Shown here piece by piece: positions 1-29,566 of a stretch of DNA of 32,000 bases. Within the stretch, counting starts at the first letter, position 1. Each line of letters opens with the position of its first letter. Below the pieces are notes generated by a model that made no database searches, was not told where the DNA came from, and saw only the letters and a program-made list of their open reading frames with translations. The position numbers were made by a program, and so were the translations under genes. This DNA is from Candidatus Saccharimonadota bacterium. Lineage in GTDB: Bacteria; Patescibacteriota; Microgenomatia; UBA1406; GWC2-37-13. Where the stretch lies: contig CP066689.1 in assembly GCA_016432445.1 (NCBI GenBank), positions 840,001 through 872,000 of the forward strand, read 5' to 3'.

Positions 1-345
1 TGCATAACAGGCAGCATGAATAATATAGTTAATCGTGTGCTTAAAATTAAAATCTTTGGATAAATCTTTTTTTATTGGGATGATATTTTTGTCCAAAGAG
101 GATAAAGTCTTAATATCTTGGTTAGGACTATGCAAACTTAGGCAATATAAAGTAGTATTGTAACCTTTCTTTTTATTTAGAGAATAGATAATATGAGCAA
201 TATAGCGGCCAAAAAAACCGTTTGAACCTGTAAGTAGTATTTTTTTTCCCTTAAACGGTTTTAGGTTAATCGATTTAATAATATTTAAACAATCTTCAAT
301 AACTACTGAACTTAATGGCAATTCTTTTTTAATCCTTTTATTCAT
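1..345 (-). CDS. SDR-family NAD(P)-dependent epimerase/dehydratase/reductase, N-terminal 115 codons (the gene runs off the left edge)
   Basis: It is absent from the ORF track because it is open at the window edge. My reverse-strand translation from the ATG at 345-343 gives MNKRIKKELPLSSVVIEDCLNIIKSINLKPFKGKKILLTGSNGFFGRYIAH...INYIIHAACYA, with a GxxGxxG Rossmann motif (TGSNGFFG). It starts 4 nt after the stop of the TPP-enzyme gene, so it belongs to the same operon. Confidence 0.6.
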   Translation of the reverse strand, partial: MNKRIKKELPLSSVVIEDCLNIIKSINLKPFKGKKILLTGSNGFFGRYIAHIIYSLNKKKGYNTTLYCLSLHSPNQDIKTLSSLDKNIIPIKKDLSKDFNFKHTINYIIHAACYA

Positions 346-349
346 ATCT

Positions 350-2155
350 TTAAGGCTGTATATTTTGGATTGCTGCTTTATTTACTAAAGGTTTGATATA
401 AAGATTACTAAATAATTCTTTTCTATCTAGATAAGGATATTGATCTTCAATACCTGTATTCCATCCTAATCTAGGAATTAATATTGTATTAATATCAGTT
501 TTAACGTCACAGATAACAGGTCCTTTATAGCTTAATACTTTTTTTATTTTTCTTTTCGCTTCAGAATAATTCTTAATGATTTCAGTATGTATTCCATAGG
601 CTTGAGCAACTTTAGAAAAGTCAGGGTGAGTATAACCCCCTTTTAAATCTGATACAAAGTGTCGAAAATTTAGATAAAGATCTTGAAACTGTTTGATAAT
701 ACCATAAGTTTCATTATTTAAAATGAATACTTTTACGGGAATATTATATGCCTTCATTGTCTGAAGCTCTTGCATATTAATCTGCATTCCGCCATCTCCT
801 ATGGTACAAATTACATTTTTTGTTTTACTTTTTTTGGCAAAATAAGCACCCAATGATGCAGCATAGGAATAGCCCATGGGAGAATGTGCCCACGATGTTA
901 TGATCTGCTGACCTTTTTTTATCTTAAAAGCCTGTGCTAAATGAACGATATTACCTCCGCAATCACCAACAATAACATCATTAGGTTCCAAAATCTCAGA
1001 TAACAATTCCATAAAAGCATAACCATTTAATCTTGATTTGGCTTTTTTGTATTCAGGTAAAACTACCGGATATTTTTTCTGCCACTCCTTGGTTTTTGCC
1101 AGCCAACTTTCAAATTTATTTATTTTATTCTTTCCAAGGCTTGATTTTAAAATCGCTATAAAGTCTCTTAAATCAGCATGGATATTGACATGACCCTTAA
1201 CCTGCTGATGATTTAGTTCATCAGAATCTATATCAATAATATATCTTTTTGCTTCTCTAGCAAAGCTGTCAACAAGGCCGCCTGTTTGGCGCCCATCATG
1301 CCTTGAACCTAAAGAGAGCAAAAGATCAGCATTTTGAAAGGTTAAGTTTGCTCCTCTTTGCCCATAGGTGCCGATTCTCCCTCGATACAAAAGGTACTCC
1401 TCATCAAGCACATCTATCGCTGCCCATGTCAAAACAACTGGAACTTTTAAAGTTTTAAGCAGCTCTTTTAATTCTTTAATCATTTTAGAATGGATAATAC
1501 CTCCTCCAACTAAAACCACTGGTCTTTGTGCTTTTTGAAGATCCTTTAAATAAACCTGTATTTTTTCTTTTACACTTTCTTTTGTCTCAGTATCCATTTT
1601 TATTTTTTCTTTAAATGAAATCAGTTTCTTCTCGTCGACCTCAGCTATCTGGATATCAGCAGGCAAATCTATCAAAACAGGGCCCGGTCTTCCAGATTTG
1701 GCGATATGAACAGCTTTCTCAAGCTCATACCTTATCATTTTAGGATCTTTGATCATTACTGCGTATTTAGTTATTGTTTTAACAATACTCACAACATCTG
1801 TTTCTTGAAATCCAACCTGTTTAACCGGCAAATTTCCTTTTGTGAATTGGCTATGTACCTGACCCGTAATCGATAACGTTGGAATAGAATCAAACCAAGA
1901 GCAGCAGATACCTGTGATAAGATTAGTTGCCCCAGGGCCGCTGGTTGTAATAGCTACTCCAAGATTACCACTTACTCTAGCATAAGCATCTGCGGCCATT
2001 GAAGAAGCTTGCTCGTGCTGAGAAGTGATAAAACGTACTTTTTTTGTTCTACCAAAAGCATCAAGTAGAGGAGCTATAACCGACCCAGTAATGCCAAAAG
2101 CAGTGTTCACACCAATTGAGACTAGATAATCAACAATATAGTCTGAGACTTTCAT
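350..2155 (-). CDS. Thiamine-pyrophosphate enzyme of the acetolactate synthase large-subunit family (three-domain, 601 aa); the specific reaction is unknown
   Basis: The N-terminal PYR domain has GPGATNLITG and ...GFQETD. The C-terminal TPP motif is GDGGMQINMQELQTMKAYNIPVKVFILNN, i.e. GDG-X24-NN. No ilvN, ilvC or ilvD neighbour is present. Confidence 0.85.
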   Translation of the reverse strand: MKVSDYIVDYLVSIGVNTAFGITGSVIAPLLDAFGRTKKVRFITSQHEQASSMAADAYARVSGNLGVAITTSGPGATNLITGICCSWFDSIPTLSITGQVHSQFTKGNLPVKQVGFQETDVVSIVKTITKYAVMIKDPKMIRYELEKAVHIAKSGRPGPVLIDLPADIQIAEVDEKKLISFKEKIKMDTETKESVKEKIQVYLKDLQKAQRPVVLVGGGIIHSKMIKELKELLKTLKVPVVLTWAAIDVLDEEYLLYRGRIGTYGQRGANLTFQNADLLLSLGSRHDGRQTGGLVDSFAREAKRYIIDIDSDELNHQQVKGHVNIHADLRDFIAILKSSLGKNKINKFESWLAKTKEWQKKYPVVLPEYKKAKSRLNGYAFMELLSEILEPNDVIVGDCGGNIVHLAQAFKIKKGQQIITSWAHSPMGYSYAASLGAYFAKKSKTKNVICTIGDGGMQINMQELQTMKAYNIPVKVFILNNETYGIIKQFQDLYLNFRHFVSDLKGGYTHPDFSKVAQAYGIHTEIIKNYSEAKRKIKKVLSYKGPVICDVKTDINTILIPRLGWNTGIEDQYPYLDRKELFSNLYIKPLVNKAAIQNIQP

Positions 2156-2189: not shown

Positions 2190-3356
2190 TTATAGTTTAG
2201 AAAGTGATTTTTTAATTCTTTTTATACCTTTATCTAGCATCTCTATTGACGTAGCATAGGAAATTCTTAAGTAGCCCTCACCATACTCACCAAAAGCTGT
2301 TCCGTCAAGCAAGGCTACGCCTGCGTCTTTTAAAATATACTCAGCCATCCATTTTGATGTTTTTCTGAATGATTTTATATTAGGAAATATATAAAAAGCT
2401 CCTTGAGGATTTTGACAAGTTATCCCATCAATTTCATTTATTTTTTTAACAATAAAGTTTCTTCTTTCCTCAAATTCTTTAACCATTGCTTCAACTTTTT
2501 TTTGCGGCCCGCTTAAAGCTTCTAAAGCCGCATATTGAGTAAAAGTAGCTGTGCAAGCTATAGTATGAGTTAAAAGACAATCAATTCTGTCTATTATGCT
2601 TTCAGGTGCAGATATATAGCCAATTCTCCATCCAGTCATAGAATAAGTTTTTGAAAAGGCATCAACTAAAAGAGTTCTGTTTTGAATGCTTTTAATACCA
2701 TAAAAGCTGGGATAAATAAAATTATCATAAATTATTGTTGCATAAATCTCGTCAGTCATTATCCAACAATCAGTTCCTTTAACCAAATCAGCTATTTCTA
2801 ATAAATCTTTCATAGGTATCACACCGCCTGTTGGATTACTTGGAGAATTTAATACTATTAATTTAGTTTTTTTAGAGAAGTTTTTTCGTAATGCTTTCAT
2901 GTCAAAACTGAAGTTATTTTCTTCAAGAAGAGGAATAGGTTTTCGAACTGCTCCAGTAAAATCAATAACTGCTTCGTATGCCGGAAAACTAGGACTTGGG
3001 TAAATCACTTCATCACTTTGATTTAACAATACTGACATCGCAATAAATATGGCAGTTTTACCGCTTGGAGTAATGGCTATTTGTTTTTCTGAAACATTGA
3101 GGTTTCTAGTTTTATTAATTTCTTCAGCTATTTTTTTTCTTAAAGGCATTATTCCAAGTGGAGCAGTATATTTTGTAAATCCTTTTTTAATTGCATTAAT
3201 TCCAGCTTTTGAAATATTTGATGGAGTAGGAAAATCCGGCTGCCCGATTTCAAAATGAACGATATTTTTTCCTTGTCTTTCAAGATCTTCACATTTGGCA
3301 AGAACATTGTATGCTCCTTCAGGTTTAAGAATATTTACCCTTTTTGCAGTTTGCAT
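2190..3356 (-). CDS. Class I/II PLP-dependent aminotransferase (aspartate aminotransferase-like)
   Basis: 388 aa. Motifs are SPSNPTGGV and SKTYSMTGWRIGY, where the Lys is the expected PLP-binding residue. The overall fold-type I layout is typical of AspC/AspB-type enzymes. Confidence 0.85.
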   Translation of the reverse strand: MQTAKRVNILKPEGAYNVLAKCEDLERQGKNIVHFEIGQPDFPTPSNISKAGINAIKKGFTKYTAPLGIMPLRKKIAEEINKTRNLNVSEKQIAITPSGKTAIFIAMSVLLNQSDEVIYPSPSFPAYEAVIDFTGAVRKPIPLLEENNFSFDMKALRKNFSKKTKLIVLNSPSNPTGGVIPMKDLLEIADLVKGTDCWIMTDEIYATIIYDNFIYPSFYGIKSIQNRTLLVDAFSKTYSMTGWRIGYISAPESIIDRIDCLLTHTIACTATFTQYAALEALSGPQKKVEAMVKEFEERRNFIVKKINEIDGITCQNPQGAFYIFPNIKSFRKTSKWMAEYILKDAGVALLDGTAFGEYGEGYLRISYATSIEMLDKGIKRIKKSLSKL

Positions 3357-3404
3357 ATTTGCATGATTATATACTAATTTATTTCAGAAGTAAATAGGAA
3401 TATT

Positions 3405-3433
3405 TTGATGAAATCAATAAGATGTGTTATATT
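3405..3433 (+). promoter_or_regulatory. Candidate sigma70-like promoter for the ask-hom-asd operon (TTGATG-17 nt-TATATT)
   Basis: The hexamers were read directly from the 85-nt divergent intergenic region. The -10 element ends 8 nt before the ATG at 3442, which would give a near-leaderless transcript. AT-rich DNA produces such hexamers by chance. Confidence 0.25.
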
Positions 3434-3441
3434 ATCAAATT

Positions 3442-4329
3442 ATGATTATAATGAAATTCGGTGGAGCCGCCTTAGCAAGAGCTGCAAATATTTTGATAAC
3501 TTCACAGATAATAAAAAAATATTCTGCAGAAGCAAAATTGGTCATAGTCGTTTCAGCAATGAAAGGAATTACTGATAAATTAACAGAAGTCGTTAATTGT
3601 TTAAATAATCGCCAGATCAAAAAAGGCTTAATAATATTAGCAAATATTAAGAATATTCATCTGTCGACAGGAAAATCTTTAAACGTAAGCGTTAAAACAC
3701 AGTTTAGAATAAAACTACTTTTAAATAATTTGGGAAGATTTATAATTAATAATAGAAATAAGAAAATAACGGCTGATAAGATCGATTATATTCTTTCTTT
3801 TGGAGAAAGGTTAAGCTGTTTAATTATTTCTAATACATTGAAACTACAAGATATAATTGTTTGTCCAATTGATGCTTCCCAGCTTTTAGCCACTGATGGT
3901 AAATTTGGAAAAGCAAAACCTCTTAATTATAAAAAACAAGAGAGCATTAAAAAAATGCTTCAAACATTAATTGAAAATAATATCACACCTATTGTTACAG
4001 GCTTTATTGGTTATGCTCCTGACGGTAGAATTACTACTTTGGGAAGAGGCGGATCTGACTTAACTGCTGCCTATTTAGCTAATTTACTAAATGCTGACGC
4101 GCTATATTTTTGGAAGGATGTTGATGGCTTCTATGTCGATGATCCTAAGAAAAACAGTCAATCATTAATGTTTAATAATCTCTCATACAAAAAAGCTGAA
4201 ATTTTAACAAAAAACGGTGCCAAAATATTACATCATCAAACAATTAGTCATATAGAAAAAAATAATATCCCCATATACATTAAAAATTTTTTAAATCCCA
4301 AAGCAACAGGGACTTTAATAACTGAGTAA
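3442..4329 (+). CDS. ask: Aspartate kinase, catalytic domain only (no C-terminal ACT regulatory domains)
   Basis: Motifs are MKFGGA at the N-terminus, LGRGGSDLTAAYLA and WKDVDGFYVDDP. The protein ends at ...NPKATGTLITE, which is where ACT domains normally begin. I prefer the ATG at 3442 (MIIMKFGG) over the track's GTG at 3424, because the truncated paralogue at 17190 starts with the same MIIMKFGG. Confidence 0.85.
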   Translation: MIIMKFGGAALARAANILITSQIIKKYSAEAKLVIVVSAMKGITDKLTEVVNCLNNRQIKKGLIILANIKNIHLSTGKSLNVSVKTQFRIKLLLNNLGRFIINNRNKKITADKIDYILSFGERLSCLIISNTLKLQDIIVCPIDASQLLATDGKFGKAKPLNYKKQESIKKMLQTLIENNITPIVTGFIGYAPDGRITTLGRGGSDLTAAYLANLLNADALYFWKDVDGFYVDDPKKNSQSLMFNNLSYKKAEILTKNGAKILHHQTISHIEKNNIPIYIKNFLNPKATGTLITE

Positions 4330-4330
4330 A

Positions 4331-5401
4331 ATGTCTTCACTAATTTTAAATATTATACATCTGGGACCAGGCAAAGTTGGGAAAATCTTTATAAAACAAA
4401 TTTTAAAGAAGAAGTCAATTCTTGAAAAAGAGTATTCGATAAAAATAAAATTTATAGGAATATTTAACTCTAAAAAAGGCTTATTTAATATTGGCGGTAT
4501 AAATGAAAGTATCTTGAAAAAAATTGCAGTATCAAAAAATATTGAAACATATCTTAAAAACATAAACATTAGAAATTTTTTCGATGATGTTTTATCTTGT
4601 AGTCATTTCGTCGTTATTGATACCTCAGCTTCCGAAGATACCTTTGATGTTTTAAAAAAATCATTAAAAAAAGGTTCTTTTGCAATCTTATCAAATAAAA
4701 AATCTCTAACCGTAGATTACTCAAAGTTCAAAGAGCTTATGAATTTTAAAAAACAAATATTTTTTGAAACTACAGTTGGAGCAGGTTTACCGATAATCTC
4801 AACAATAAAAGAATTAACTGAAACCGGAGACGAAATTCTTCACATACAAGGGTGCCTCTCTGGAACACTAGGTTTTATATTTGATCTTCTGCAAAAAGGT
4901 GAAAAATTTTCTAGAGCTGTAGAACTAGCTAAGAAAAATTGTTTTACCGAACCTGATCCAAGAGATGATTTAGGAGGTCTTGATGTAGCCCGCAAAGCCT
5001 TAATTATAAGCCGACTTATTGGCCGTCAAATAAATCTTAAAGATATAAAAACTCAAAGTCTGTACCCAAATGAACTACATGGAATTGGAGTTAATGATTT
5101 TTTAAAAAAGATTGCTATTATTGATAGTTACTACCATAATCTCATTATAAAAGCTAGAAAAAACAATCAAGTTTTACGATATATAGCTCATGTAGAAAAA
5201 CACTCAACAACTGTTGGGATTAAAAACGTTCTCCTAAAAAGTGATATGGGATCTTTAGAAGGACCTGATAACATCATCATTATAAAAACAAAACGCTACT
5301 TCAATAATCCTTTGGTAATTAAAGGACCAGGGGCGGGTCCTGAAGTGACAGCGGCTGGAGTATTTGGAGATTTATTAAAAATTATAAAAATGATGAAATA
5401 A
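4331..5401 (+). CDS. hom: Homoserine dehydrogenase (resembles the ThrA/MetL C-terminal domain type)
   Basis: It has an N-terminal NAD-binding GPGKVG motif. The core GAGLPIISTIKELTETGDEILHIQGCLSGTLGFIF closely resembles the E. coli ThrA dehydrogenase domain as I recall it. It starts 1 nt after the ask stop. Confidence 0.85.
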   Translation: MSSLILNIIHLGPGKVGKIFIKQILKKKSILEKEYSIKIKFIGIFNSKKGLFNIGGINESILKKIAVSKNIETYLKNINIRNFFDDVLSCSHFVVIDTSASEDTFDVLKKSLKKGSFAILSNKKSLTVDYSKFKELMNFKKQIFFETTVGAGLPIISTIKELTETGDEILHIQGCLSGTLGFIFDLLQKGEKFSRAVELAKKNCFTEPDPRDDLGGLDVARKALIISRLIGRQINLKDIKTQSLYPNELHGIGVNDFLKKIAIIDSYYHNLIIKARKNNQVLRYIAHVEKHSTTVGIKNVLLKSDMGSLEGPDNIIIIKTKRYFNNPLVIKGPGAGPEVTAAGVFGDLLKIIKMMK

Positions 5402-5404
5402 GCT

Positions 5405-6487
5405 ATGAAAAAATTGAGAGTAGGCATCCTTGGATCAACAGGCATGGTTGGACAAAGATTTATTTCTTTGTTAAATAATCATCCTTGGTTTGAGATAAGC
5501 TGTGTAGCAGCATCCCCTGAGTCGGCCGGAAAAAAATATGATCTAGCTATAAAAGGAAGAACTAATCCAGAAACAAAAATTCCTGATTACGTTAAACATT
5601 TAAAAATAAATTCTGTTGAAGATGATTTTAATTCAATTGTTAAAAAAGTAGATTTCGTTTTTTCAGCCTTAGGTATGGAAAAAGAAAAAGTTGCTAATCT
5701 AGAAATAGCTTTTGCAGAAAAAGGAATTCCTGTAATATCTAGTAACTCAGCTCATCGCTGGACTCAGGATGTACCTATGATTATGCCCGAGATTAACCCT
5801 AATCATATTAAACTCATTGATATTCAAAGAAAAAAACGAGGGTGGAAAAGCGGATTAATATTGGTAAAGCCTAACTGTTCTATTCAATCATATGTTATTG
5901 TTTTGACTGCCCTTTGCAAATTTAAACCTTTAAAAGTTTCTGTCACTAATCTTCAAGCAATATCTGGTGCAGGTAAAACATTTGATACATGGCCTGAGAT
6001 GGTTGATAATGTCATTCCTTTTATAAAAGGGGAAGAAGAAAAATCAGAAAAAGAACCTTTAAAAATTTGGGGGGAAATTACTAAAGATAAAATCTACTGT
6101 GATAGTAAACCTTTAATATCTTCAACATGCATACGCATACCTGTTTCCAATGGTCATATGTCAAGCGTCGCCGTCAAGTTTAAAACAAAACCTTCAAAAG
6201 AAGAAATAATTCATGCAGTGAAAAACTTTAAAAATCCTTTAAAAGATCTTCGTCTTCCCTCCGCTCCAAGGAATAATCTCATTAAATATTTTAATGAATT
6301 AGATAGACCTCAAACTAAATTTGACAGAGATTATCAAAATGGTATGGGTATAACCATGGGAAGACTAAGAGAAGATACGTTATTTGACTGGAAATTTATT
6401 ACATTATCGCACAACACAATAAGAGGTGCTGCAGGAGGTGCAATTATTGCAGCTGAGTTATTAGTAAGAAAAGGCTATATTAAATAA
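5405..6487 (+). CDS. asd: Aspartate-semialdehyde dehydrogenase, archaeal/fungal-type
   Basis: Motifs are GILGSTGMVGQRFISLLNNHPWFE, KPNCSIQ (active-site Cys) and IPVSNGHM (catalytic His). It starts 3 nt after the hom stop. Confidence 0.9.
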   Translation: MKKLRVGILGSTGMVGQRFISLLNNHPWFEISCVAASPESAGKKYDLAIKGRTNPETKIPDYVKHLKINSVEDDFNSIVKKVDFVFSALGMEKEKVANLEIAFAEKGIPVISSNSAHRWTQDVPMIMPEINPNHIKLIDIQRKKRGWKSGLILVKPNCSIQSYVIVLTALCKFKPLKVSVTNLQAISGAGKTFDTWPEMVDNVIPFIKGEEEKSEKEPLKIWGEITKDKIYCDSKPLISSTCIRIPVSNGHMSSVAVKFKTKPSKEEIIHAVKNFKNPLKDLRLPSAPRNNLIKYFNELDRPQTKFDRDYQNGMGITMGRLREDTLFDWKFITLSHNTIRGAAGGAIIAAELLVRKGYIK

Positions 6488-6504
6488 TATTAAATAATTT
6501 AAAA

Positions 6505-7611
6505 ATGTCTTTTAAATTTATTGCTCTTACACGGCCTCTTATTGGAAAAAAAGAGATTAACGCAGTAACTCAAGTGTTAAACTCTGGAATGCTTACTCAA
6601 GGCCAAGTTGTCTCTATATTTGAAAAAGAATTCTCTCAATATTGCAAAGTAAAATATGCAATCGCATGCAATAATGGCACATCAGCATTACATATTGCTC
6701 TTTACTCAATAGGTTTAAAACCAGGAGATGAGGTTATTACTACTCCTTTTACCTTTGTTGCCACAGCTAATTCTATTTTAATGGTTGGCGCTGTCCCTGT
6801 TTTTGTTGACATTGAACCTTTTACTTTTAATATTGACACTCAAAAAATTGAAGCAGCTGTTACAAAAAAAACTAAAGCTATTCTTGTTGTTAATCTTTAT
6901 GGTCAACCTGCTGATTACGATAGAATTTTATCTATTGCTAAAAAGCATAACCTAACTGTAGTTGAAGATGCCGCTCAATCAGTAGGTGCAGAATATAAAG
7001 GTAAAAAAAGCGGTAATTTAGCAGACATTGGCTGTTTTTCTTTTTATGGCACAAAAAATATAACCTGCGGTGAAGGAGGCATGATAACAACAAATAATAA
7101 ACACTATTATGAAAAATCTCTTTTATTTAGGAACCATGGCCAAGATGAAAAAAAGAAATATTTTTATAGCGATATCGGTTATAATTACCGGCTTACTGAC
7201 ATACTTGCTTCAATTGCCTTGATTCAGTTAAACAAGATTAAAACTATGACAAAAAAAAGGCAGATGATTGCTTTAAAATACGACAAGATATTAAGAGATG
7301 TAAATGGGATCACAACTCCCTTTACTGCACCCAACAGAACTCATGTTTATCATCAATACACTATAAAAGTTACAAAGGATTTCAAGCTAAAAAGATATGC
7401 GCTGAAAGATTATCTTTATAAGAAAGGAGTCCAGACAAACATTTATTATCCTAAACCTCTTTACGAATTTGATCACCTTCAAGTTGGCAAAAAACAAAAG
7501 AGTTATCCTATAACAGAAGCCGTTACTAAAGAATGTTTATCTTTACCCATTTATCCAGCGCTTAAAAACAGCGATATTGATTACATTATTGATTTGATAA
7601 AAAAAATATAA
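6505..7611 (+). CDS. DegT/DnrJ/EryC1/StrS-family nucleotide-sugar aminotransferase
   Basis: 368 aa. The signature is FSFYGTKNITCGEGGM, with the PLP lysine codon at 7054-7056. It lies 17 nt after asd, in the same transcription unit. Confidence 0.85.
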   Translation: MSFKFIALTRPLIGKKEINAVTQVLNSGMLTQGQVVSIFEKEFSQYCKVKYAIACNNGTSALHIALYSIGLKPGDEVITTPFTFVATANSILMVGAVPVFVDIEPFTFNIDTQKIEAAVTKKTKAILVVNLYGQPADYDRILSIAKKHNLTVVEDAAQSVGAEYKGKKSGNLADIGCFSFYGTKNITCGEGGMITTNNKHYYEKSLLFRNHGQDEKKKYFYSDIGYNYRLTDILASIALIQLNKIKTMTKKRQMIALKYDKILRDVNGITTPFTAPNRTHVYHQYTIKVTKDFKLKRYALKDYLYKKGVQTNIYYPKPLYEFDHLQVGKKQKSYPITEAVTKECLSLPIYPALKNSDIDYIIDLIKKI

Positions 7612-8310
7612 ATGCACGAACGTATTAAAAAATTAAGTGTTATTTTACCTTACTATCATGAAAGTTATGAAAGTTTAATCAAAGGAATTAATAAGATTGC
7701 TGATTTTCTAAAAAATAATAATATTTATTTTGAAATTATCATCTCGCAAAATGGATGTTTAAAAAAAATTAAGCCTCCTTATTCTTATTGTAAAGTAGTA
7801 TTTGATAGTAATAGAGGATTGGGGACAGCAATTAAAAAAGCCGTTAAAGTTTCCACTGGAGATTATTGTTATTTTCTCTCTCTTGAAGTACCTTTTAATT
7901 TTACTGATTTAAAACAGATGATAAATAAGTGTGATCAATACGATTTAATAATCGGATCTAAACTTCATCCTCATTCAATCTATCAGATCAACATTGTCAG
8001 AAAATTAGTTTCTTATATAAGCTGTGCAATCGCCTCTATATTATTACCCAACTTCAGAATAAAAGATCCAAACGGGACATTATTTGGAGATTCGAAAATT
8101 TTCAAAAGCATATGTAAACATATTATAAGTAATGATTTCTTTTTTAATACTGAGCTTGTTTATGCTTATGTTAAAAACAATAAGAGAGTTATAGAAGTTC
8201 CTGTCGTCTACACTAAGAATGATTATCGCTCATCAGTTAGGATTCTAAAGGATGGTTATAAATACCTTATTCAGATTTTTAATCTTTGTTTTGACAACCG
8301 CCGTTCATAA
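7612..8310 (+). CDS. Family-2 glycosyltransferase of the DPM1/GtrB/ArnC (polyprenyl-phosphate sugar synthase) type, with non-canonical acidic motifs
   Basis: Motifs are LSVILPYYHES, ...RGLGTAIKKAVKVSTGDY... and LIIGSK. My hand alignment to GtrB-type enzymes puts QNG where DGS is expected and SLE where DXD is expected. The start abuts the stop of the upstream gene. Confidence 0.6.
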   Translation: MHERIKKLSVILPYYHESYESLIKGINKIADFLKNNNIYFEIIISQNGCLKKIKPPYSYCKVVFDSNRGLGTAIKKAVKVSTGDYCYFLSLEVPFNFTDLKQMINKCDQYDLIIGSKLHPHSIYQINIVRKLVSYISCAIASILLPNFRIKDPNGTLFGDSKIFKSICKHIISNDFFFNTELVYAYVKNNKRVIEVPVVYTKNDYRSSVRILKDGYKYLIQIFNLCFDNRRS

Positions 8311-9260
8311 TAATCTCTGAATATATTATTACCGCCAAGACTTTCTTTAAATCTAGCCAAACCCCAGTTAGGTTCCATATTCACAGTAAACAAACCTAAA
8401 TCATAAAAATAATACCCTTTTTGACGGCACTCGTTCAAAATTTCATGAAAAAGCAAATTTAAAGGACGGTACGACTGATAATCGTTATCCTGACTAATAT
8501 AGAAAGCCAGCATTACTTTTTCATTACAAACAAAGTTTATAACTCCGGCTATTAATTTTTCATTCAAATAAGCACTTTTTAAACTAATCTTATCGGGAAA
8601 TAATTCTTTAAGTTTCAATAATTCCTCTAATGAATGTGTCGGATTAACATTATATTTTTTCATTAAATTTACCTTAAGAAGATTGTAAAAAGTAATAAAA
8701 TCATCCGAGTTTTTTGTTTTAATCTTTTTCTTTACTGCTTTTCTAAGCGCTGTCCTTGCCTCTTGTTTAAAAATATTACTAATATTTGTTTCTAATTTAA
8801 GACTAACAATGCTAGTTAACTCTCTCTTTTTTAAATAAAAACCATTTTTATGAAAAGCAAACTCAATATTGTTTGAAGGAAGTTTGTGATAAAGAATTGG
8901 AGGAGGAGTTATTTGCATTTTTTCACATCCAAGACGTGTCACGTATTTAATTAGCTCTTCCACTAATTTACATGTATTTTGAAGACTTAAGACTTTCTTG
9001 TGTACAATTCCTCCATAAGTAGCACCTGGATGAGAAGCAAAAATTAAATTTTTTCCTTCTTTCTTCAATACAGCTGGCATTACTGCAATTAGTTTATCAT
9101 CTTCTAAAAACAACAATGAGCAATCTTTGAAACGATTATTCGGATGATAACTTAAAAATCTTCTCATTTGAAAAATAGTGCCATTATTGGATTCCATAAT
9201 AAATGAGTCCCATAACTTACTCAAAGTTTCTGAAAAACGAAGCATTTTCATTTTTTTCAT
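8271..9260 (-). CDS. FemAB/GNAT-fold (Acetyltransf_6-like) acyl- or aminoacyl-transferase
   Basis: 329 aa. The N-terminal half reads ...WDSFIMESNNGTIFQMRRFLSYH...IAVMPAVL...HPGATYGGIV, a layout typical of FemX-like proteins found in polysaccharide loci. It is the last gene of the minus-strand operon. Its 3' end overlaps the convergent GT2 by 40 nt. Confidence 0.5.
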   Translation of the reverse strand: MKKMKMLRFSETLSKLWDSFIMESNNGTIFQMRRFLSYHPNNRFKDCSLLFLEDDKLIAVMPAVLKKEGKNLIFASHPGATYGGIVHKKVLSLQNTCKLVEELIKYVTRLGCEKMQITPPPILYHKLPSNNIEFAFHKNGFYLKKRELTSIVSLKLETNISNIFKQEARTALRKAVKKKIKTKNSDDFITFYNLLKVNLMKKYNVNPTHSLEELLKLKELFPDKISLKSAYLNEKLIAGVINFVCNEKVMLAFYISQDNDYQSYRPLNLLFHEILNECRQKGYYFYDLGLFTVNMEPNWGLARFKESLGGNNIFRDYYERRLSKQRLKI

Positions 9261-9266
9261 ATCTTT

Positions 9267-10115
9267 TCAGAACAAGATTTCTTCAATGGATAATTTTTTT
9301 TTAGTTTTCAATAAGATTACTCCATCTCCTACGCTAATAAGATAGTAACCTTTTACTTTAGCCAATACTTCACCAACTTTATTTGACAAGTAGCTCTCTT
9401 GAAACTCAACTCTTTCCTTTTTTCGGTTGAAGGCAAATGTATTAGGATAGGGAGATTTTAAAGCCCGGACCAAATTAAAGATTTCTCTAGCGTTGTTTTC
9501 CCAAATTATTTTACCATCTTCTTTGTTCCTTTTTGGGGCATAAGTTGCATTATTTTCATTTTGTTTTTTACCTTTTAATCTTTTTTTCACCTTAGATATT
9601 TTTTTAACAACTTGAACCAGCAATTGTGCGCCTAGTTTAACTAAAGCTTTTTTAACGGTATTTATATCATCGTAATTACTTAAAGGTATTGTTTTTTGTA
9701 AGAGAATATCCCCGGAGTCCATGCCTTCATCTAAGTAGTGGACAGTTACTCCTATCTGTTTTTCATCCCGAATAATAGCCCAGTTAAGCGGGTGGTAACC
9801 TCGGTATTTAGGCAATTCCCCAGCATGAACGTTGATTGAACCAAATTGCGGGTAAAATATTATATTTTTAGGAAAAATTTTTGGGAATGAAGCAACAATC
9901 ATTAAGTCTGGTTTAATTAATTTCATTTTAGTAAAAAGTACTTGTGAGGATTGATAAACTTCCAAATCGATATTCCGTCTATTACATAATTGCTGTATAC
10001 CTTTAACATCGTAATTTTTAGGTACAATAACAGAAACTATTTTGAACCTATTATTTAAAAGTTCCTTTAAACATTTGTATCCATTATCTCCCCAGCCAAT
10101 AAATAATATTTTCAT
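9267..10115 (-). CDS. Formyltransferase (ArnA N-terminal domain / sugar N-formyltransferase-like)
   Basis: It has INVHAGELPKYRGYHPLNWAI plus SGD, the Asn/His/Asp catalytic pattern of formyltransferases. A C-terminal Fmt-like subdomain is present (ATYAPKRNKEDGKIIW...LVRALKSPYP). It lacks the tRNA-Fmt PDxxxGRG motif. Confidence 0.8.
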   Translation of the reverse strand: MKILFIGWGDNGYKCLKELLNNRFKIVSVIVPKNYDVKGIQQLCNRRNIDLEVYQSSQVLFTKMKLIKPDLMIVASFPKIFPKNIIFYPQFGSINVHAGELPKYRGYHPLNWAIIRDEKQIGVTVHYLDEGMDSGDILLQKTIPLSNYDDINTVKKALVKLGAQLLVQVVKKISKVKKRLKGKKQNENNATYAPKRNKEDGKIIWENNAREIFNLVRALKSPYPNTFAFNRKKERVEFQESYLSNKVGEVLAKVKGYYLISVGDGVILLKTKKKLSIEEILF

Positions 10116-10122
10116 AAAATCA

Positions 10123-11064
10123 TTACGATAAAACCTCCAAAGCTTTTAAAGCCGGCATTACATTACTTATATCTGGCATATTTCTATTACGAAGAAAGTC
10201 GCGAATCTCTTCTTTAAGTGGTTCTTTCTTTGAGATAAAAATCTCTTTTTTTACTCCTTCAGACAATGAAATCAACTCAAAAAAATCTCCATCCGGTTTA
10301 ATTTGCATAATTTTATCATAAAGAGTTAGTTTTTGAAGTATGTAGTCAAGCTCGATAAAACCATCGGTACCTGTAACATAAAGTTTTCTCATTTTGATTG
10401 GTGTTATCCAGTTTGTTTGAATTAAACCTGAGGCATTTTTATATTCTAAAAGCAATGAAGCAGAGTCTGATATGTTTTTTTTGAAGATTTGATGCTTAAT
10501 AATTTTTTTGGTGTGAGGAAACTCATCTAGAAGATAATTGAAAACATCGATGTCATGAATAGCTAGTTCTATAGAAACATCAGAGCTTGGAAATGATGGG
10601 GGACTAATACCAACACGAACCGCCAGTAAGCTTATAATCATTCCTAATCTTTTTTCTTTGATTATCTTTTTAAGTTCGATTACAGCAGGATTAAAGCGTT
10701 CTATATGACCTACCATTAAAAATGTTTTGCTCTCTTTTGCCTTTTCAAGCATTTCCAATCCTTCATTAAAAGAGGAAGCAATTGGTTTTTCAACTAAAAC
10801 GGGAATTTTTTTTCTTAAACAGTCTATTGTAATATCTTTATGAAATTTTGTCGGCACCACGACAGACAATGCTTCTGGTTTCTCCTTTTCTATTAATTCT
10901 CTATAATCTTTATAGTAGTTAGTTTTAAATTTTTCTGCTAAAGGTCTGCCTATTTCAGGAAGAATGTCGGCGATACCCACAAGTTGAGATATTTCACTAT
11001 AGACTCGTGCGTGATTTTTTCCCATATTCCCAGCACCAATTACTGCTGTTTTAATATTCTTCAT
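10123..11064 (-). CDS. Gfo/Idh/MocA-family NAD(P) oxidoreductase (WbpB/GnnA-like nucleotide-sugar dehydrogenase candidate)
   Basis: It has an N-terminal VIGAGNMGKNHARVY Rossmann motif and the VEKP motif. It sits 6-7 nt from both neighbours in the operon. Confidence 0.8.
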   Translation of the reverse strand: MKNIKTAVIGAGNMGKNHARVYSEISQLVGIADILPEIGRPLAEKFKTNYYKDYRELIEKEKPEALSVVVPTKFHKDITIDCLRKKIPVLVEKPIASSFNEGLEMLEKAKESKTFLMVGHIERFNPAVIELKKIIKEKRLGMIISLLAVRVGISPPSFPSSDVSIELAIHDIDVFNYLLDEFPHTKKIIKHQIFKKNISDSASLLLEYKNASGLIQTNWITPIKMRKLYVTGTDGFIELDYILQKLTLYDKIMQIKPDGDFFELISLSEGVKKEIFISKKEPLKEEIRDFLRNRNMPDISNVMPALKALEVLS

Positions 11065-11070
11065 ACTAAA

Positions 11071-13449
11071 TTATTTTAACGGTCTGAATCTTTTCCAAGG
11101 AAATATTAAGAAAATAAGGAGTGTAATTAAGGAGATTATTGAGATGTAAGCCCCCAAGTAAAATTTATCAGGTTGATAAACAAACTTTACCTCATGTTCA
11201 CCATCATCAAGAAAGACCCCTCTTAAAGCGACGTTAGTGCGATAAATCTCAACTGGCTTCTCATCCACATAAGCCTTCCATCCAGGATAATAAGAATCAC
11301 TTAAAACTAAGAAAGAACTGCCTTTACTGCTAGCTGAGATTTTTACTTGAGAGTTTTGATAATCTATTATCGTTGCCAGAGATTCAGATTTATTCAAAGA
11401 AAGTTTCGGCAATTGATCTGATGAAGCTACCACTGCTGATTCTCTCAGATTTAGAGTATCCATGAGGCTTAAGGCCTCTTCATCATTGGTAGTACTTTTA
11501 ACTTCCCCAACTAAATATACTCTAGGAAACCTATCAAGATTTTCGTAAGCATATACATTCGAACCAACAGGTATTATAGTCCCGTTAAGTTCTGTATATC
11601 GATTTTTATCTTTTTTTGGCATGAGGGAGGCGATTACCATTTTGATTTTTTTAGGCTCTTCTTTTTCTAAAGTTTTTGTCGTAATAATATAACTTACTCC
11701 CAAAAGATCAAGAACTGGTGAATTAAAATCAAAATGAGCAGCAGTTTGATTAAAATAATGGGTCATTAAAGTGCTGTAATAATTAGAATAAAAGCCATAA
11801 TAACCATCAAGTTGGTATAATTTTTCAGCAGATGAATTGTAACGAAGACCTGACTCAAGAAAGTAAGCCCTGCTATAATCTTCATTTATTTTATCATCTA
11901 ATGAACTGATAATTTCGCTTTTTGTATTAAAAACTCTAGGATCTAATTCTGAATTCGTTTGTGGATAACTACTGTTTAACGTAAAAAGATCAAAAAGAAT
12001 TATCAAAACTAAAAATACTTTAAAAAATCTTGATGGCTGTACATAGAAATACTTAATTAAAATAACACTCGATCCAAGCACTATCAAAGGAATTAATGAA
12101 AAACGAATCATTTCAGCAATTGTCCCTTGGTTGGGAACAGGAGGAACAATTGCCTTTAGGATGAATAATCCAAACCAAAATAAAGAAAAAGCAATAAAAA
12201 TCTTTTTAATTTGACTATTAACTATCTCAAAGCTAATTTTTCTATTCTCTAGAATATTAACTCCAATAGCAACTAAAATAGCTAAACCGAATGTAACAAT
12301 GTAATTTAAGAAGGCAGGTCTTCTCATACTGTCATAAAGAGGTACTATTTTATATATTAACGAATGCAAAAAAGTCAGATTCCCCAATGAGAGCACAAGG
12401 AAGAAAAAACTGATAACCACAAAAAATTTAACGTAACTTTTATTCGAGTATTTTAACGCTAAATAGATTAAAAATAATGACAAAATACCAACATAACCAT
12501 AAACATTACCGCTATCTTTGACACCGTAAAAATAAGGAACAAAATAGTTTAAAATACCCTCAACTGTCGTATTGTAATAACCAGCGCCAACTACATTGTA
12601 AATTTGTCGAGCAGCCAAATTTGCTTGTTCCATGTTTGGCAGTAATACGACCGCTGACAAAAAAATTGCTGTTAGATGTGTAATAAATAAAAAACCAAAT
12701 GTTGTAATGAATGTTTTTAAATTTTTAGCAAAAAAGTAGAAAATTACTAAACTAATAAATATACTGTTGTAGATAAATAATGGAGAATAACCTGATAAGA
12801 GTACTAAAGCTGTAGCAAATCCAGCCAAGATAGCTCTCCTAAAAGAATTTTTCTCTAAAGCTGTCCAAAGGAAATAAAGCTGTAAAGGAAGAAAAGCTAC
12901 TCCAGTAGAAGGGTAAATATAAATAACCAAAAAAATGAATGCACCGCTAAAACCATATATTATTCCAGCAACAAAAGAAGAAAAACTGCTTAATTTTAGA
13001 CACCGTTTAACAAAGAGGTAAGTAAATATACCGGCTAAACTCATATGAAATAACGGAAAGTACGTAATAAAGAAAAGATAATATTTAGAGGAGAAAAAAC
13101 TTGAAATAAAATAAAACAAAAATTTTATCGGATAGAATAATCCACTACGATCTACTGCACCTACCCAAGGCATTCCTAGAAGACTGTAAGGATTCCAAAA
13201 AATTGAAGATATTGACTGGCTGCCTTTTATTATATCTTGAAAAATATGCACTCCATAAACAAAATCTGGATAATAGCTACCATCAAATTCTGCATCAAAA
13301 AATACTAAACTAATATTAGAAAGATCCAAATTGCGCCAAAACGCAATAAAAGGAAAAATAAAATAAGGAAGGATTATTAAAATATAGAAATGTTTAGTAT
13401 AGAGAAAATTAAAGACTTTGATAATAAACCGTTCAATTGTTTTTACCAT
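11071..13449 (-). CDS. YfhO-like GT-C-fold membrane glycosyltransferase
   Basis: 792 aa. A polytopic N-terminal portion covers most of the first ~490 residues. The first loop is acidic (FFDAEFDGSYYPDF). The extracytoplasmic C-terminal domain reads DSYYPGWKAYVDEKPVEIYRTNVALRGVFL...VKFVYQP and is followed by a terminal TM anchor, an architecture characteristic of YfhO. Confidence 0.7.
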   Translation of the reverse strand: MVKTIERFIIKVFNFLYTKHFYILIILPYFIFPFIAFWRNLDLSNISLVFFDAEFDGSYYPDFVYGVHIFQDIIKGSQSISSIFWNPYSLLGMPWVGAVDRSGLFYPIKFLFYFISSFFSSKYYLFFITYFPLFHMSLAGIFTYLFVKRCLKLSSFSSFVAGIIYGFSGAFIFLVIYIYPSTGVAFLPLQLYFLWTALEKNSFRRAILAGFATALVLLSGYSPLFIYNSIFISLVIFYFFAKNLKTFITTFGFLFITHLTAIFLSAVVLLPNMEQANLAARQIYNVVGAGYYNTTVEGILNYFVPYFYGVKDSGNVYGYVGILSLFLIYLALKYSNKSYVKFFVVISFFFLVLSLGNLTFLHSLIYKIVPLYDSMRRPAFLNYIVTFGLAILVAIGVNILENRKISFEIVNSQIKKIFIAFSLFWFGLFILKAIVPPVPNQGTIAEMIRFSLIPLIVLGSSVILIKYFYVQPSRFFKVFLVLIILFDLFTLNSSYPQTNSELDPRVFNTKSEIISSLDDKINEDYSRAYFLESGLRYNSSAEKLYQLDGYYGFYSNYYSTLMTHYFNQTAAHFDFNSPVLDLLGVSYIITTKTLEKEEPKKIKMVIASLMPKKDKNRYTELNGTIIPVGSNVYAYENLDRFPRVYLVGEVKSTTNDEEALSLMDTLNLRESAVVASSDQLPKLSLNKSESLATIIDYQNSQVKISASSKGSSFLVLSDSYYPGWKAYVDEKPVEIYRTNVALRGVFLDDGEHEVKFVYQPDKFYLGAYISIISLITLLIFLIFPWKRFRPLK

Positions 13450-13542
13450 TTAAATAAAGTCCAGTATATAGTAGAAGATATATCAATTCAACTGATCTTT
13501 ACAGGGTAATCAAAAGGAGTTGGTACAGAAAGGATAGAATTT

Positions 13543-14198: not shown

Positions 14199-14239
14199 GA
14201 ATACCCTCTTTACCATAGATTTTTATGATTAAAATCATT

Positions 14240-15097
14240 TTAATCTTGCAGTTTAACATTTCGAAAAAGACAATCCATCACAGGCATTTTTCCTATGCTT
14301 GTATCATCATAATTTCTAAATCCTATTAACTGAAAATTGAACTCTGATGAATATAGCTGAGACATTAGGGAAGAAAGTGTATAATTTCGATTGTCTTCAA
14401 CAGTAATCTCTATAAATAAAAAATTTGTTTTTGCTAAAGTTTTAGCTGCTCCTTTAAGCACTAAATGTTCAAATCCTTCAACATCTATTTTCAATAAATC
14501 AATTAACTTAATTTTATTTTTCGCAATAAAGTTATCAAGAGTCTCAACGACAACCCCTATTTTCCCTTTATTATCAAAGTGACTAACAGAGGATTGATCA
14601 GGATTAAATGACATTTTTGCTACGCCTTGCTTATCAGATAAAGCAATCTTCTTTGTTTTTGTTTTTTTATCATTTTGAAAATTAAGTTCCAAACATTTAT
14701 AAGTTTCAGGAATGGGCTCAATACTGTATATTGCTGAATTGGGATAAAGTTCTCTTATAAGTTTTGAAAAAAAACCAACATTTGCACCAACATCAATAAC
14801 TAAAGAAAGATTTTTTATCTCTGCCAAGTTAAGAAGATATTGGTGACGAGCTAAAATACTTTGATAGCCTGCGATTCCGTAAGGCGAATCATAAAATATT
14901 TTTTGCCCATAAAGATTTGCATAATCATCACCTATTTTAAATTTTTTAAATGGCCGCATAATCAACAAACTGTACTTAATTAAATAAAACATCATTTTTT
15001 TTGATAAAGACCATTTTGAAACAACAAATAATCTATAATCTAAGGTAAGTGATTGTTTTATAAACCAATAAATGTTTTTCATATAAATGTTTTTCAT
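14240..15097 (-). CDS. FkbM-family SAM-dependent methyltransferase
   Basis: Motifs are VIDVGANVGFFS, ...IYSIEPIPETY... and KIDVEGFEHLVLKGA. The ATG overlaps the upstream TGA (ATGA). A second in-frame ATG lies 15 nt downstream. Confidence 0.8.
   Translation of the reverse strand: MKNIYMKNIYWFIKQSLTLDYRLFVVSKWSLSKKMMFYLIKYSLLIMRPFKKFKIGDDYANLYGQKIFYDSPYGIAGYQSILARHQYLLNLAEIKNLSLVIDVGANVGFFSKLIRELYPNSAIYSIEPIPETYKCLELNFQNDKKTKTKKIALSDKQGVAKMSFNPDQSSVSHFDNKGKIGVVVETLDNFIAKNKIKLIDLLKIDVEGFEHLVLKGAAKTLAKTNFLFIEITVEDNRNYTLSSLMSQLYSSEFNFQLIGFRNYDDTSIGKMPVMDCLFRNVKLQD
15068..15097 (-). repeat. Perfect 2 x 15-bp tandem duplication that includes the FkbM start codon (ATGAAAAACATTTAT x2)
   Basis: The plus strand at 15068-15097 reads ataaatgtttttcat ataaatgtttttcat. 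The protein therefore begins MKNIYMKNIY. Confidence 0.9.
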
Positions 15098-16056
15098 AAA
15101 TCATCAATTTGAACTCCAGCCTTATACCATTCAATTGTTTTTAATAATCCCTGTTCAAGAGTAAATTTTGGCTCCCAATCAAGCAGTTTTTTTGCCTTAT
15201 CAATAGACACATACTGTTTATTTATTTCTTGTTTTCTCACTATCTTTGTCGCAACTGGAGTTATAGTTGAACCATAGTATAATTTAATAATCTTTTTTAT
15301 TATTGTGGCATTACTATAATGTTTACCTGTCCCAAAATTAAATATGATATTATCTGATTCCTTTTTTAAATCTTTTAGCTTTTCAGCGAGCATAATATAG
15401 GCATCTATAGCATCATCTATGTATAAATAGTCTCTGGTTGTTCTATCGTAAAAGATCTCAGGTCTTTTATTTTTCATTAATAACTGAATAGTTCGTGGTA
15501 CGATGCGGACATTATTGTCTCCATAGCCGTAAGTATTTACAAACCTGGCGATGGCAATCGGTAAATCATAATAAGAAGCATACGTTTGGGCAATCATATC
15601 AGCACAGGCCTTAGAAGTTTCATAAGGTCTTGAGGGTCTAGGAAAATATTCTTCTAAAAATGGAAGGATATTTTTTCCATATACATGCGAAGTAGAGGCA
15701 ACAATAATACCTTTTAAATTATTATGTCTTGCAGCTTCAAGTATATTCCATGTTCCTTTAATATTAACTTCAAATGTAGTAGTCGGATCATTACTTCCGA
15801 CATCAACAATAGGCTGTGCAGCTAAATGAAAACAAAAATCAAAATTATTTTTGTTAAAAAGCGTTAATATAGCTTCTTTATCACTTATATCGACTACAAT
15901 AACATTTAAGTTTAGGTGTTCTTTTTTAAATGAACTATGATTACTTAATGCATAAACTGTTCCATCTAATTCTAGAAGCTTCCTAACTAAAGCCTTCCCA
16001 ATAAAACCAGTAGCGCCTGTTACCAATATTTTTTTATTTTTCCAAAAGTTACTCAT
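15094..16056 (-). CDS. Extended-SDR NAD-dependent nucleotide-sugar epimerase/dehydratase (the N-terminus resembles CDP-glucose 4,6-dehydratase)
   Basis: Motifs are FWKNKKILVTGATGFIG and the YETSK catalytic YxxxK. It has ATGA overlaps with both neighbours. Confidence 0.8.
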   Translation of the reverse strand: MSNFWKNKKILVTGATGFIGKALVRKLLELDGTVYALSNHSSFKKEHLNLNVIVVDISDKEAILTLFNKNNFDFCFHLAAQPIVDVGSNDPTTTFEVNIKGTWNILEAARHNNLKGIIVASTSHVYGKNILPFLEEYFPRPSRPYETSKACADMIAQTYASYYDLPIAIARFVNTYGYGDNNVRIVPRTIQLLMKNKRPEIFYDRTTRDYLYIDDAIDAYIMLAEKLKDLKKESDNIIFNFGTGKHYSNATIIKKIIKLYYGSTITPVATKIVRKQEINKQYVSIDKAKKLLDWEPKFTLEQGLLKTIEWYKAGVQIDDL

Positions 16057-28522: not shown

Positions 28523-28525
28523 CCT

Positions 28526-29311: not shown

Positions 29312-29349
29312 GCTTGAAAATATAGATTTAGTAATGTAATATTCTTGTT

Positions 29350-29565: not shown

Positions 29566-29566
29566 T

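Follow-up and report, generated by a model that had tools for sequence, protein, structure and literature searches.

A 32,000-nt stretch of the Candidatus Saccharimonadota contig CP066689.1 (assembly GCA_016432445.1, positions 840,001 to 872,000 of the forward strand; hereafter the window, G+C content 30-37%) carries three adjacent genes for the conversion of aspartate to homoserine, encoding an aspartate kinase (AK), a homoserine dehydrogenase (HSD) and an aspartate-semialdehyde dehydrogenase (ASD). Divergent from them is an operon for a class-I aminotransferase, a YerE-like thiamine diphosphate (ThDP)-dependent carboligase and an extended short-chain dehydrogenase/reductase (SDR). The explanation favoured here, at roughly even odds (a probability of about 0.5), is that AK-HSD-ASD is a recruited copy of the pathway, free of feedback domains, which serves the divergent operon in placing a three-carbon (C3) branch on a nucleoside diphosphate (NDP)-4-keto-3,6-dideoxyhexose. 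A first-pass annotation of this DNA had proposed a dedicated, unregulated aspartate-to-homoserine module for glycan synthesis whose product is amide-linked to an amino sugar; synteny upholds the dedicated module but not the amide chemistry, since the partners that are kept point to carbon-carbon branching of a keto-sugar. The nearest relatives of the AK are proteins of Gottesmanbacteria (51% identity) and Roizmanbacteria (46%), both Microgenomates of the Candidate Phyla Radiation (CPR).

Neighbourhoods were fetched for related AKs that lack the regulatory ACT domains and for homologues of the ThDP enzyme, and each locus was scored with the proteins of the window. Seven gene orders were seen in which an AK module has a YerE-like ThDP gene no more than a few kb away. 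AK-HSD-ASD is divergent from an aminotransferase-ThDP-SDR operon in the window and its independent assembly L089, and also in L004, L001 and L087; in L006 and L119, with the fragment L097 consistent, the module is followed by an aminotransferase gene on the opposite strand and then by a ThDP gene on its own strand; and in L086 it converges with an aminotransferase-ThDP pair. The remaining orders are AK-HSD-ThDP (L088), AK-ASD-HSD divergent from ThDP-aminotransferase-SDR (L130), AK-ASD divergent from aminotransferase-ThDP-SDR (L131), and an AK-ASD pair divergent from the same operon but in the opposite orientation (L095). By comparison, a ThDP or acetohydroxyacid synthase (AHAS)-like gene (E<=1e-10, within about 10 kb) was found in 0 of 76 ordinary AK loci (L010-L085) drawn from across bacteria and archaea. 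That the two stay together despite repeated rearrangement is the best evidence obtained for a functional link between the AK module and the ThDP enzyme. The embedding of the module in glycan clusters, claimed by the first-pass annotation, likewise persists across the related loci.

The other partners are retained to differing extents. HSD is present and tightly coupled, with spacers of 0-3 nt or overlaps, in nine of the 11 AK-linked loci, and an aminotransferase gene lies beside the ThDP gene in most of them. The aminotransferase-ThDP adjacency also exists without an AK in five distant, low-GC marine loci (L108, L109, L117, L121 and L124; aminotransferase identity 30-35%), in one of which, L117, the two genes abut with zero gap; such pairs fit a transaminase that draws the donor from an amino acid already in the cell. 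One locus of high G+C content (L116, 64%) was not counted as support: its aminotransferase and YerE-like ThDP genes lie 3.5 kb from an ACT-bearing lysC followed by asd, which is probably a chance adjacency of the common ask-asd operon. As an observation in its own right, positions 6807-16523 of that locus hold the aminotransferase-ThDP pair and an E1-sized His-type dehydratase near the canonical lysC-asd, and could be an independent instance of the linkage.

The ThDP enzyme (601 aa, positions 350..2155, minus strand) possesses all three of the TPP_enzyme_N, TPP_enzyme_M and TPP_enzyme_C domains and the GDG...NN cofactor motif. Among solved structures it matches 8RPH (360 bits) and 5AHK (302 bits) better than any AHAS (at most 269 bits). 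These are the structures of JanthE and PpYerE, the two YerE-like lyases whose structures have been solved; no other subclass of the decarboxylase family is known to transfer acyl groups to isolated ketones (PMC12188165, PMC12247030). A 6-residue insertion after TGQV is shared by the window enzyme, all AK-linked homologues, JanthE and PpYerE, and is absent from the AHAS of E. coli and yeast. Similarity annotation names the protein an acetolactate synthase large subunit, but its identification as a true AHAS was rejected on three grounds: the score against the AHAS model TIGR00118 is 434 bits where the cutoff is 538, and every other AHAS model is also below cutoff; the insertion is of YerE type; and neither an AHAS small subunit (ilvN) nor an ilvC/ilvD context is present in the window or the related loci. 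The enzyme is accordingly classed, from its sequence, as a predicted member of the YerE-like subclass, the comparison being with JanthE and PpYerE and not with the YerE, ErwE or MMAR_2332 sequences. It is proposed to decarboxylate 4-hydroxy-2-oxobutanoate and to add the resulting acyl unit to an NDP-4-keto-sugar.

The aminotransferase (388 aa, 2190..3356, minus strand; PF00155, 226 bits) is the first gene of the divergent operon and is of the AspC/aromatic type. It scores below all NCBIfam equivalog cutoffs, the top model being archaeal aspartate aminotransferase (359 bits, cutoff 550), and its best match in the PDB is the aromatic aminotransferase of P. horikoshii; its proposed reaction is the conversion of homoserine to 4-hydroxy-2-oxobutanoate. 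The SDR is the last gene of the operon and runs off the start of the window, where its N-terminal 115 codons occupy positions 1..345 on the minus strand (MNKRIKK...LLTGSNGFFG). The full protein of 358 aa is encoded at 5828-6904 of L089, 4 nt downstream of the ThDP gene, and matches the Pfam families Epimerase and GDP_Man_Dehyd. Orthologues with 56-70% identity lie behind the ThDP gene in L004, L087, L001 and L092-094. The SDR could reduce the side chain, in the manner of YerF, or handle the keto-sugar, for instance by making a 4-keto-pentose acceptor.

Across an intergenic region of 85 nt (3357..3441) from the aminotransferase, the AK, HSD and ASD genes are followed by genes for a DegT-family sugar aminotransferase and a GT2 glycosyltransferase, with successive spacers of 1, 3, 17 and 0 nt. 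These positions and spacers, like the divergence of an AspC-like aminotransferase over 85 nt, agree with what had been read from the sequence at first pass. The AK (3442..4329, plus strand) consists of a catalytic domain alone; its start at ATG 3442, judged likelier than the upstream GTG 3424, also agrees with that reading, but its length is 295 aa plus the stop codon and not 296 aa. PF00696 is the sole Pfam match (149 bits, residues 7-288 of the 301-aa open reading frame (ORF)), and the protein scores 230 bits against the asp_kinases model TIGR00657, above its cutoff of 208.7. Aligned to residues 4-299 of the 473-aa AK of M. jannaschii, it retains intact KFGG, SFGE and GRGGSD motifs and ends exactly at the boundary between the catalytic and ACT regions, as the first-pass annotation had claimed.

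The HSD (356 aa, 4331..5401, plus strand; PF00742, 149 bits) is of the ThrA C-terminal type without a regulatory domain and covers positions 465-815 of the ThrA model NF006959 (336 bits). Since the AK stop codon occupies 4327-4329 and HSD starts at 4331, the two are separate ORFs with no interdomain region. The ASD (360 aa, 5405..6487, plus strand) is of the archaeal/eukaryal type, with 343 bits against asd_EA (TIGR00978, cutoff 301) and 450 bits against NF006416. The second-best match to it, protein P0242 (591 bits), is 521 aa long, about 160 residues more than a usual ASD, with an extra Gp_dh_C match, and may be a fusion or a miscalled gene. A scan of the whole window against Rfam gave no riboswitch, T-box or leader before AK at threshold, and 3357-3441 contains no Rfam family. 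Counts from promoter and terminator scans equalled background, as did the promoter-like matches in 3357-3441, and carry no information on operon boundaries.

The proposed acceptor sugar also has candidate genes in the window. An NDP-hexose 4,6-dehydratase (15094..16056, minus strand), with an orthologue in L087 (83%), matches the NCBIfam models for CDP-glucose 4,6-dehydratase (166 bits) and dTDP-glucose 4,6-dehydratase (156 bits) and would catalyse the first step to the keto-sugar. A DegT-family protein at 18234..19418 (plus strand) is a ColD-type 3-dehydratase dependent on pyridoxamine 5'-phosphate (PMP), closer in the PDB to ColD (230 bits) than to E1 (166 bits), and is predicted to yield NDP-4-keto-3,6-dideoxyhexose. 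In this protein His replaces the Schiff-base Lys, a signature of PMP-dependent 3-dehydratases, with GHHMTTVEGG aligned to SHHIATMEGG of ColD. It is followed by a GDP-L-fucose-synthase-like (ColC-like) epimerase/reductase (19354..20337, plus strand; NF047922, 394 bits), whose true start is probably ATG 19411. Homologues of the His-type 3-dehydratase are present in seven other clusters with a ThDP enzyme (L001, L006, L088, L130, L095, L093 and L116). The Fcl-like gene lies behind the ColD-like gene in L001, L092-094 and L095; in L092-094 the ThDP, SDR, ColD-like and Fcl-like genes are consecutive on one strand, and in L095 a genuine Gmd precedes the last two. Because 4,6-dehydratase and His-type 3-dehydratase genes recur across the ThDP clusters, a predicted route to 4-keto-3,6-dideoxyhexose is a regular companion of the YerE-like enzyme. 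The acceptor of YerE and ErwE is CDP-4-keto-3,6-dideoxy-D-glucose (PMC9306805).

These families and linkages can be joined into a scheme of donor supply, the YerE-type chemistry of which is taken from the literature. Aspartate would be converted to aspartyl phosphate by AK, to aspartate semialdehyde by ASD and to L-homoserine by HSD. Transamination of homoserine gives 4-hydroxy-2-oxobutanoate, and this step would fall to the class-I aminotransferase. The ThDP enzyme would then decarboxylate the keto acid and move a 3-hydroxypropanoyl unit to C4 of the NDP-4-keto-3,6-dideoxyhexose made by the cluster 4,6-dehydratase and ColD-type 3-dehydratase, the nucleotide of which is presumed, and reduction of the side-chain ketone by the SDR would give a 4-C-(1,3-dihydroxypropyl)-3,6-dideoxyhexose for a surface glycan. 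Amino-acid biosynthesis is, by the usual account, mostly missing from CPR bacteria, and in cells generally without such pathways the supply line would need to sit within the cluster. The scheme gives all six conserved genes a role. It resembles the published route to longer branches (PMC9306805): an aldolase of the cluster builds the hydroxylated 2-oxo acid, which is joined to the keto-sugar by a YerE-like enzyme before a reductase using NAD(P)H reduces the side chain. ErwE, MMAR_2332 and MyGE accept 4-hydroxy-2-oxobutanoate, ErwE rejects pyruvate, and transamination of amino acids has been named as an alternative route to donor keto acids (PMC9306805). No aldolase is linked to the AK module, where a transaminase and a complete aspartate-to-homoserine pathway are found instead.

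Several observations weigh against this scheme. In L095 and L131, HSD is missing from the AK-ASD genes that adjoin the aminotransferase-ThDP-SDR operon, although L131 is a contig of 9 kb, and L088 has neither ASD nor an aminotransferase nearby; because of these loci, homoserine cannot be proved to be the common intermediate, and in some lineages the pathway may in truth branch at aspartate semialdehyde, or the absent genes may be located elsewhere. L092-094 have the ThDP, SDR and ColD genes but no aminotransferase or AK within 8 kb. The aminotransferase is not separable by sequence from an aspartate or aromatic aminotransferase and could merely make aspartate for the kinase, and the closest solved relatives of the SDR are UDP-glucuronate decarboxylases (104 bits) and no characterised side-chain reductase. 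Within the window, 9-15 kb separate the AK module from the 4,6-dehydratase and ColD-like genes. We know of no natural sugar with a C3 1,3-dihydroxypropyl branch. A weak point in favour of the scheme comes from the window contig: matches to a relative's threonine synthase (ThrC) and to the window ASD were assessed from the best 120 clusters listed per query, and among these matches neither a ThrC nor a second ASD was found on the 1,103,789-bp contig of the window; orthologues from Gottesmanbacteria thr operons do reach those lists (ThrC 64-75% identity, ASD 66%). Such genome-wide absences are weak negative evidence, and a lack of threonine synthase and of a second ASD in the organism would, weakly, fit a dedicated module.

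The loci without HSD lend themselves to an alternative in which aspartate semialdehyde is the key product. The YerE-like enzyme would use this aldehyde as donor, giving a beta-aspartyl-type branch that bears an amino acid, or as acceptor; the aminotransferase would make aspartate from oxaloacetate or modify the branch later, and HSD would be accessory. The aspartate aminotransferase model at the top of the aminotransferase's NCBIfam matches is consistent with this, as is the testing of YerE-like donors as aldehydes (acetaldehyde) besides 2-oxo acids (PMC12247030). However, HSD would be left without a role in the nine loci where it is tightly coupled, and in L095 and on the short L131 contig it could be encoded elsewhere, so that this alternative is considered unlikely.

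The loss of ACT domains is real but does not identify the purpose of the pathway. No ACT-coding ORF was found in the window or in 12 related loci by hidden Markov model searches and tblastn with ACT regions, and the separate ACT subunit encoded nearby that the first-pass annotation had named as contrary evidence is therefore absent from these loci. Around 40 protein clusters of 285-334 aa in Microgenomates constitute an ACT-less AK family, and an identical AK protein is found on 9-10 independent contigs, which shows that the ACT-less form is not a truncation artefact. Some members of the family are in threonine operons: in L003, ACT-less AK-HSD-ASD is followed by a P-loop protein and then by threonine synthase (301 bits to plant ThrC), the first four genes of L008 are the same, and L009 has the order threonyl-tRNA synthetase (ThrRS)-AK-ASD-ThrC. 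The glycan-linked AK of L095, conversely, retains its ACT domains. Because of both observations, ACT loss is regarded as a lineage trait of Microgenomates, probably older than the recruitment, and the earlier claim that it marks dedication to glycan synthesis was rejected. The absence of ACT is compatible with a dedicated supply role and is not diagnostic of one.

The same threonine operons raise the possibility that AK-HSD-ASD makes homoserine for threonine and methionine in a lineage of ACT-less AKs, with its position in a glycan cluster incidental or its use dual, and the window ASD and HSD are equally similar to thr-operon and glycan-linked copies. Against this, the linkage to a YerE-like gene is kept over seven gene orders and is not seen at ordinary AK loci. 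Each window ORF of at least 100 aa belongs to a family other than thrB, thrC, metA/X, dapA or lysA, or encodes a protein, membrane-bound or unassigned, that has no Pfam match, in keeping with the earlier report that the window lacks these genes, and no glycan-type locus contains thrB or thrC; nor is there a ThrC on the window contig among the matches listed. A neighbour-joining tree, which is a coarse method, unites the glycan-linked ACT-less AKs in a single clade and leaves the thr-linked AKs outside, and all members of the window AK clade with known context are glycan-linked. A housekeeping function is thus quite unlikely. The thr operons hold a separate point of interest in the 211-aa P-loop protein encoded between ASD and threonine synthase (L003 13033-13668, L008 3712-4347), which has a GMSxVGK[ST] motif, weak similarity to AAA_33 and no match among solved structures; identity between its L003 and L008 copies is 48%. 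These operons show no thrB of the GHMP type, and the P-loop protein is a candidate non-orthologous homoserine kinase.

Downstream of ASD lies the set of genes on which the amide model was built. The DegT-family sugar aminotransferase (6505..7611, plus strand; PF01041, 432 bits) retains the catalytic Lys in the motif FSFYGTKNITCGEGG. It is followed by the GT2 protein (232 aa, 7612..8310, plus strand; PF00535, 27.8 bits, weak similarity to AglJ), which is probably a polyprenyl-phosphate sugar transferase that works with a YfhO-like protein. A FemAB/GNAT-like (Acetyltransf_6) gene (8271..9260, minus strand; PF13480, 34 bits; FemAB, 24 bits) runs towards GT2 and shares 40 nt with it. Then come three more genes on the minus strand: a sugar N-formyltransferase (Fmt; 9267..10115) and a GFO/UDP-GlcNAc 3-dehydrogenase-like oxidoreductase (10123..11064), both assigned from Pfam/NCBIfam, and a YfhO-like polytopic membrane glycosyltransferase (792 aa, 11071..13449; PF09586) with orthologues in L004, L087 and L001. 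The formyltransferase, GFO-like gene and DegT together suggest a predicted 3-amino, 3-formamido sugar. The region 6505-13449 looks self-contained, in that a 3-amino/3-formamido sugar would be made, carried on polyprenyl phosphate and transferred outside the cell by a GT-C enzyme.

According to the amide model, homoserine, aspartate semialdehyde or a C4 derivative (2,4-diaminobutyrate or 2,4-dihydroxybutyrate) is amide-linked to the amino sugar made by DegT, with the FemAB/GNAT-like protein as coupling enzyme. In the window and L004 the genes AK-HSD-ASD-DegT-GT2 are indeed separated by 0-17 nt; genes for a 3-amino-sugar route (GFO-like dehydrogenase and Lys-type DegT) and for an acyl/aminoacyl-transferase-like protein are adjacent, and O-antigens are known in which amino sugars are N-acylated with hydroxy or amino acids. 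The synteny with DegT and GT2 that was to be sought in relatives is, however, local. The DegT/GT2/FemAB/Fmt/GFO/YfhO block lies beside the AK module in the window species and L004 and partly in L087, and DegT itself adjoins the module only in the window and L004; GT2 is conserved only together with the GFO/Fmt/FemAB/YfhO block. The FemAB-like gene, present in the window/L089 and L004 with a 38% homologue in L087, is missing from most AK-linked loci, so its nomination as coupling enzyme is not supported. The DegT/GT2/FemAB linkage is absent in L001, L006, L086, L088, L095, L119, L130 and L131, and the partners that are kept are the aminotransferase, the ThDP enzyme and the SDR, for none of which the amide model has a role. 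FemAB-type enzymes, moreover, take their substrate from aminoacyl-tRNA, and tRNA is not charged with homoserine. DegT, GT2, the FemAB-like protein, formyltransferase, GFO-like protein and YfhO form a neighbouring, separable amino-sugar module, and the amide model is improbable. A non-glycan small molecule made by the six genes, such as 3-hydroxypropanal or 1,3-propanediol from homoserine by way of 4-hydroxy-2-oxobutanoate, or an acyloin, with the ThDP enzyme as a plain decarboxylase/carboligase, suits the enzyme families alone (aminotransferase, decarboxylase-family enzyme and reductase) but is very improbable, as all loci are packed with NDP-sugar enzymes and glycosyltransferases, the ThDP, SDR, ColD and Fcl genes of L092-094 share one strand, and the enzyme groups with ketone-accepting YerE-like lyases and not with simple decarboxylases.

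Other features of the glycan regions were noted. L001 (14125-16126), L086 (11729-12939) and L088 (3411-5157) also encode ThDP enzymes of another kind, either an E1 alpha/beta pair or a split transketolase, and these bacteria may make several different C-branched sugars; E1 alpha/beta and transketolase types are both listed as sugar-ketone branching enzymes (PMC12247030). Just beyond the left edge of the window, L089 (708-3993) encodes a TylC3-like NDP-sugar C-methyltransferase (Methyltransf_13/14) and an asparagine-synthase-like amidotransferase, with a GT1 and an S-adenosylmethionine (SAM) methyltransferase. Between two blocks of glycan genes, window positions 13637-14198 hold short Cys-rich ORFs (MCKCRQTYAVQGRYRCRKCR...) that by eye resemble an N-terminal fragment of a transposase; the gap between the flanking genes is 791 nt and has the same size in L089. 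Two large polytopic membrane proteins without a Pfam match (786 and 960 aa) follow a GT4 gene at 21660-26886, and at the right end of the glycan region (26972-31225) a SAM methyltransferase gene lies between those for two B12-binding radical SAM enzymes (516 and 552 aa), which may C-methylate or otherwise modify sugars or lipids.

A wider proposal, held a little less firmly than the donor-supply scheme for the window, is that Microgenomates may make a new class of C-branched deoxysugars, in which the side chain comes from homoserine, or in some lineages aspartate semialdehyde, through a duplicated, regulation-free aspartate pathway that feeds a YerE-like carboligase. If true, sugar C-branching would for the first time be seen to draw on an amino-acid pathway and a transaminase in place of an aldolase; the known scheme for sugars with acyl branches would gain a new donor supply, transamination of a purpose-made amino acid, and a concrete new sugar would be predicted. 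Part of the 'amino-acid biosynthesis' genes of CPR bacteria would then be glycan genes. An automated reconstruction would score AK, ASD and HSD as biosynthetic capacity although they apparently serve a surface glycan, and such reconstructions may mislead. A naturally regulation-free AK, as predicted, and a YerE-like carboligase that probably prefers 4-hydroxy-2-oxobutanoate would also interest biocatalysis, including routes from homoserine to C3/C4 chemicals. No literature was found on ACT-less AKs in Patescibacteria or on homoserine-derived sugar branches. Prior notice of aminotransferase- or AK-linked YerE-like clusters is possible; Krug et al. reportedly surveyed more than 200 YerE-like clusters in 2024.

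Compared with ThrA and canonical ACT-regulated AKs, the window AK shares the KFGG, SFGE and GRGGSD motifs, the HSD is nearest to the ThrA C-terminal domain, and the AK-HSD gene order is the domain order of ThrA. In the window, however, kinase and dehydrogenase are two proteins, nothing of the ACT region remains, and the linkage is to sugar-branching genes and not to thrB/thrC. The ACT-less thr operons L003, L008 and L009 have a catalytic-only AK of the same build, about 300 aa long, and ASD and HSD of matching types (46-66% identity), but they run into a P-loop protein and threonine synthase or adjoin ThrRS, contain no ThDP, aminotransferase or sugar genes, and their AKs fall outside the glycan clade. 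The colitose pathway (Gmd-ColD-ColC) likewise has a His-type ColD-like 3-dehydratase followed by a GDP-fucose-synthase-like enzyme, and L095 has a true Gmd ahead of them; here, by contrast, the ThDP carboligase is proposed to intercept the 4-keto-3,6-dideoxy intermediate, and the window 4,6-dehydratase is nearer to CDP-/dTDP-glucose enzymes than to Gmd. The closest likeness is to the YerE/YerF and ErwE/ErwF systems of yersiniose, erwiniose and caryophyllose (PMC9306805, PMC12247030), in which a YerE-like ThDP enzyme lies beside an NAD(P)-dependent reductase in a surface-glycan cluster, together with a 4,6-dehydratase and a PMP-dependent 3-dehydratase for 4-keto-3,6-dideoxyhexose and dedicated genes for a 2-oxo-acid donor. 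Those systems differ in using pyruvate or a donor built by an aldolase (ErwI/ErwJ, MMAR_2331, MygI), whereas the window has a transaminase and an aspartate-to-homoserine pathway, a CPR host, a 3-dehydratase of ColD type and not of E1/E3 type, and a predicted C3 branch that has not been described.

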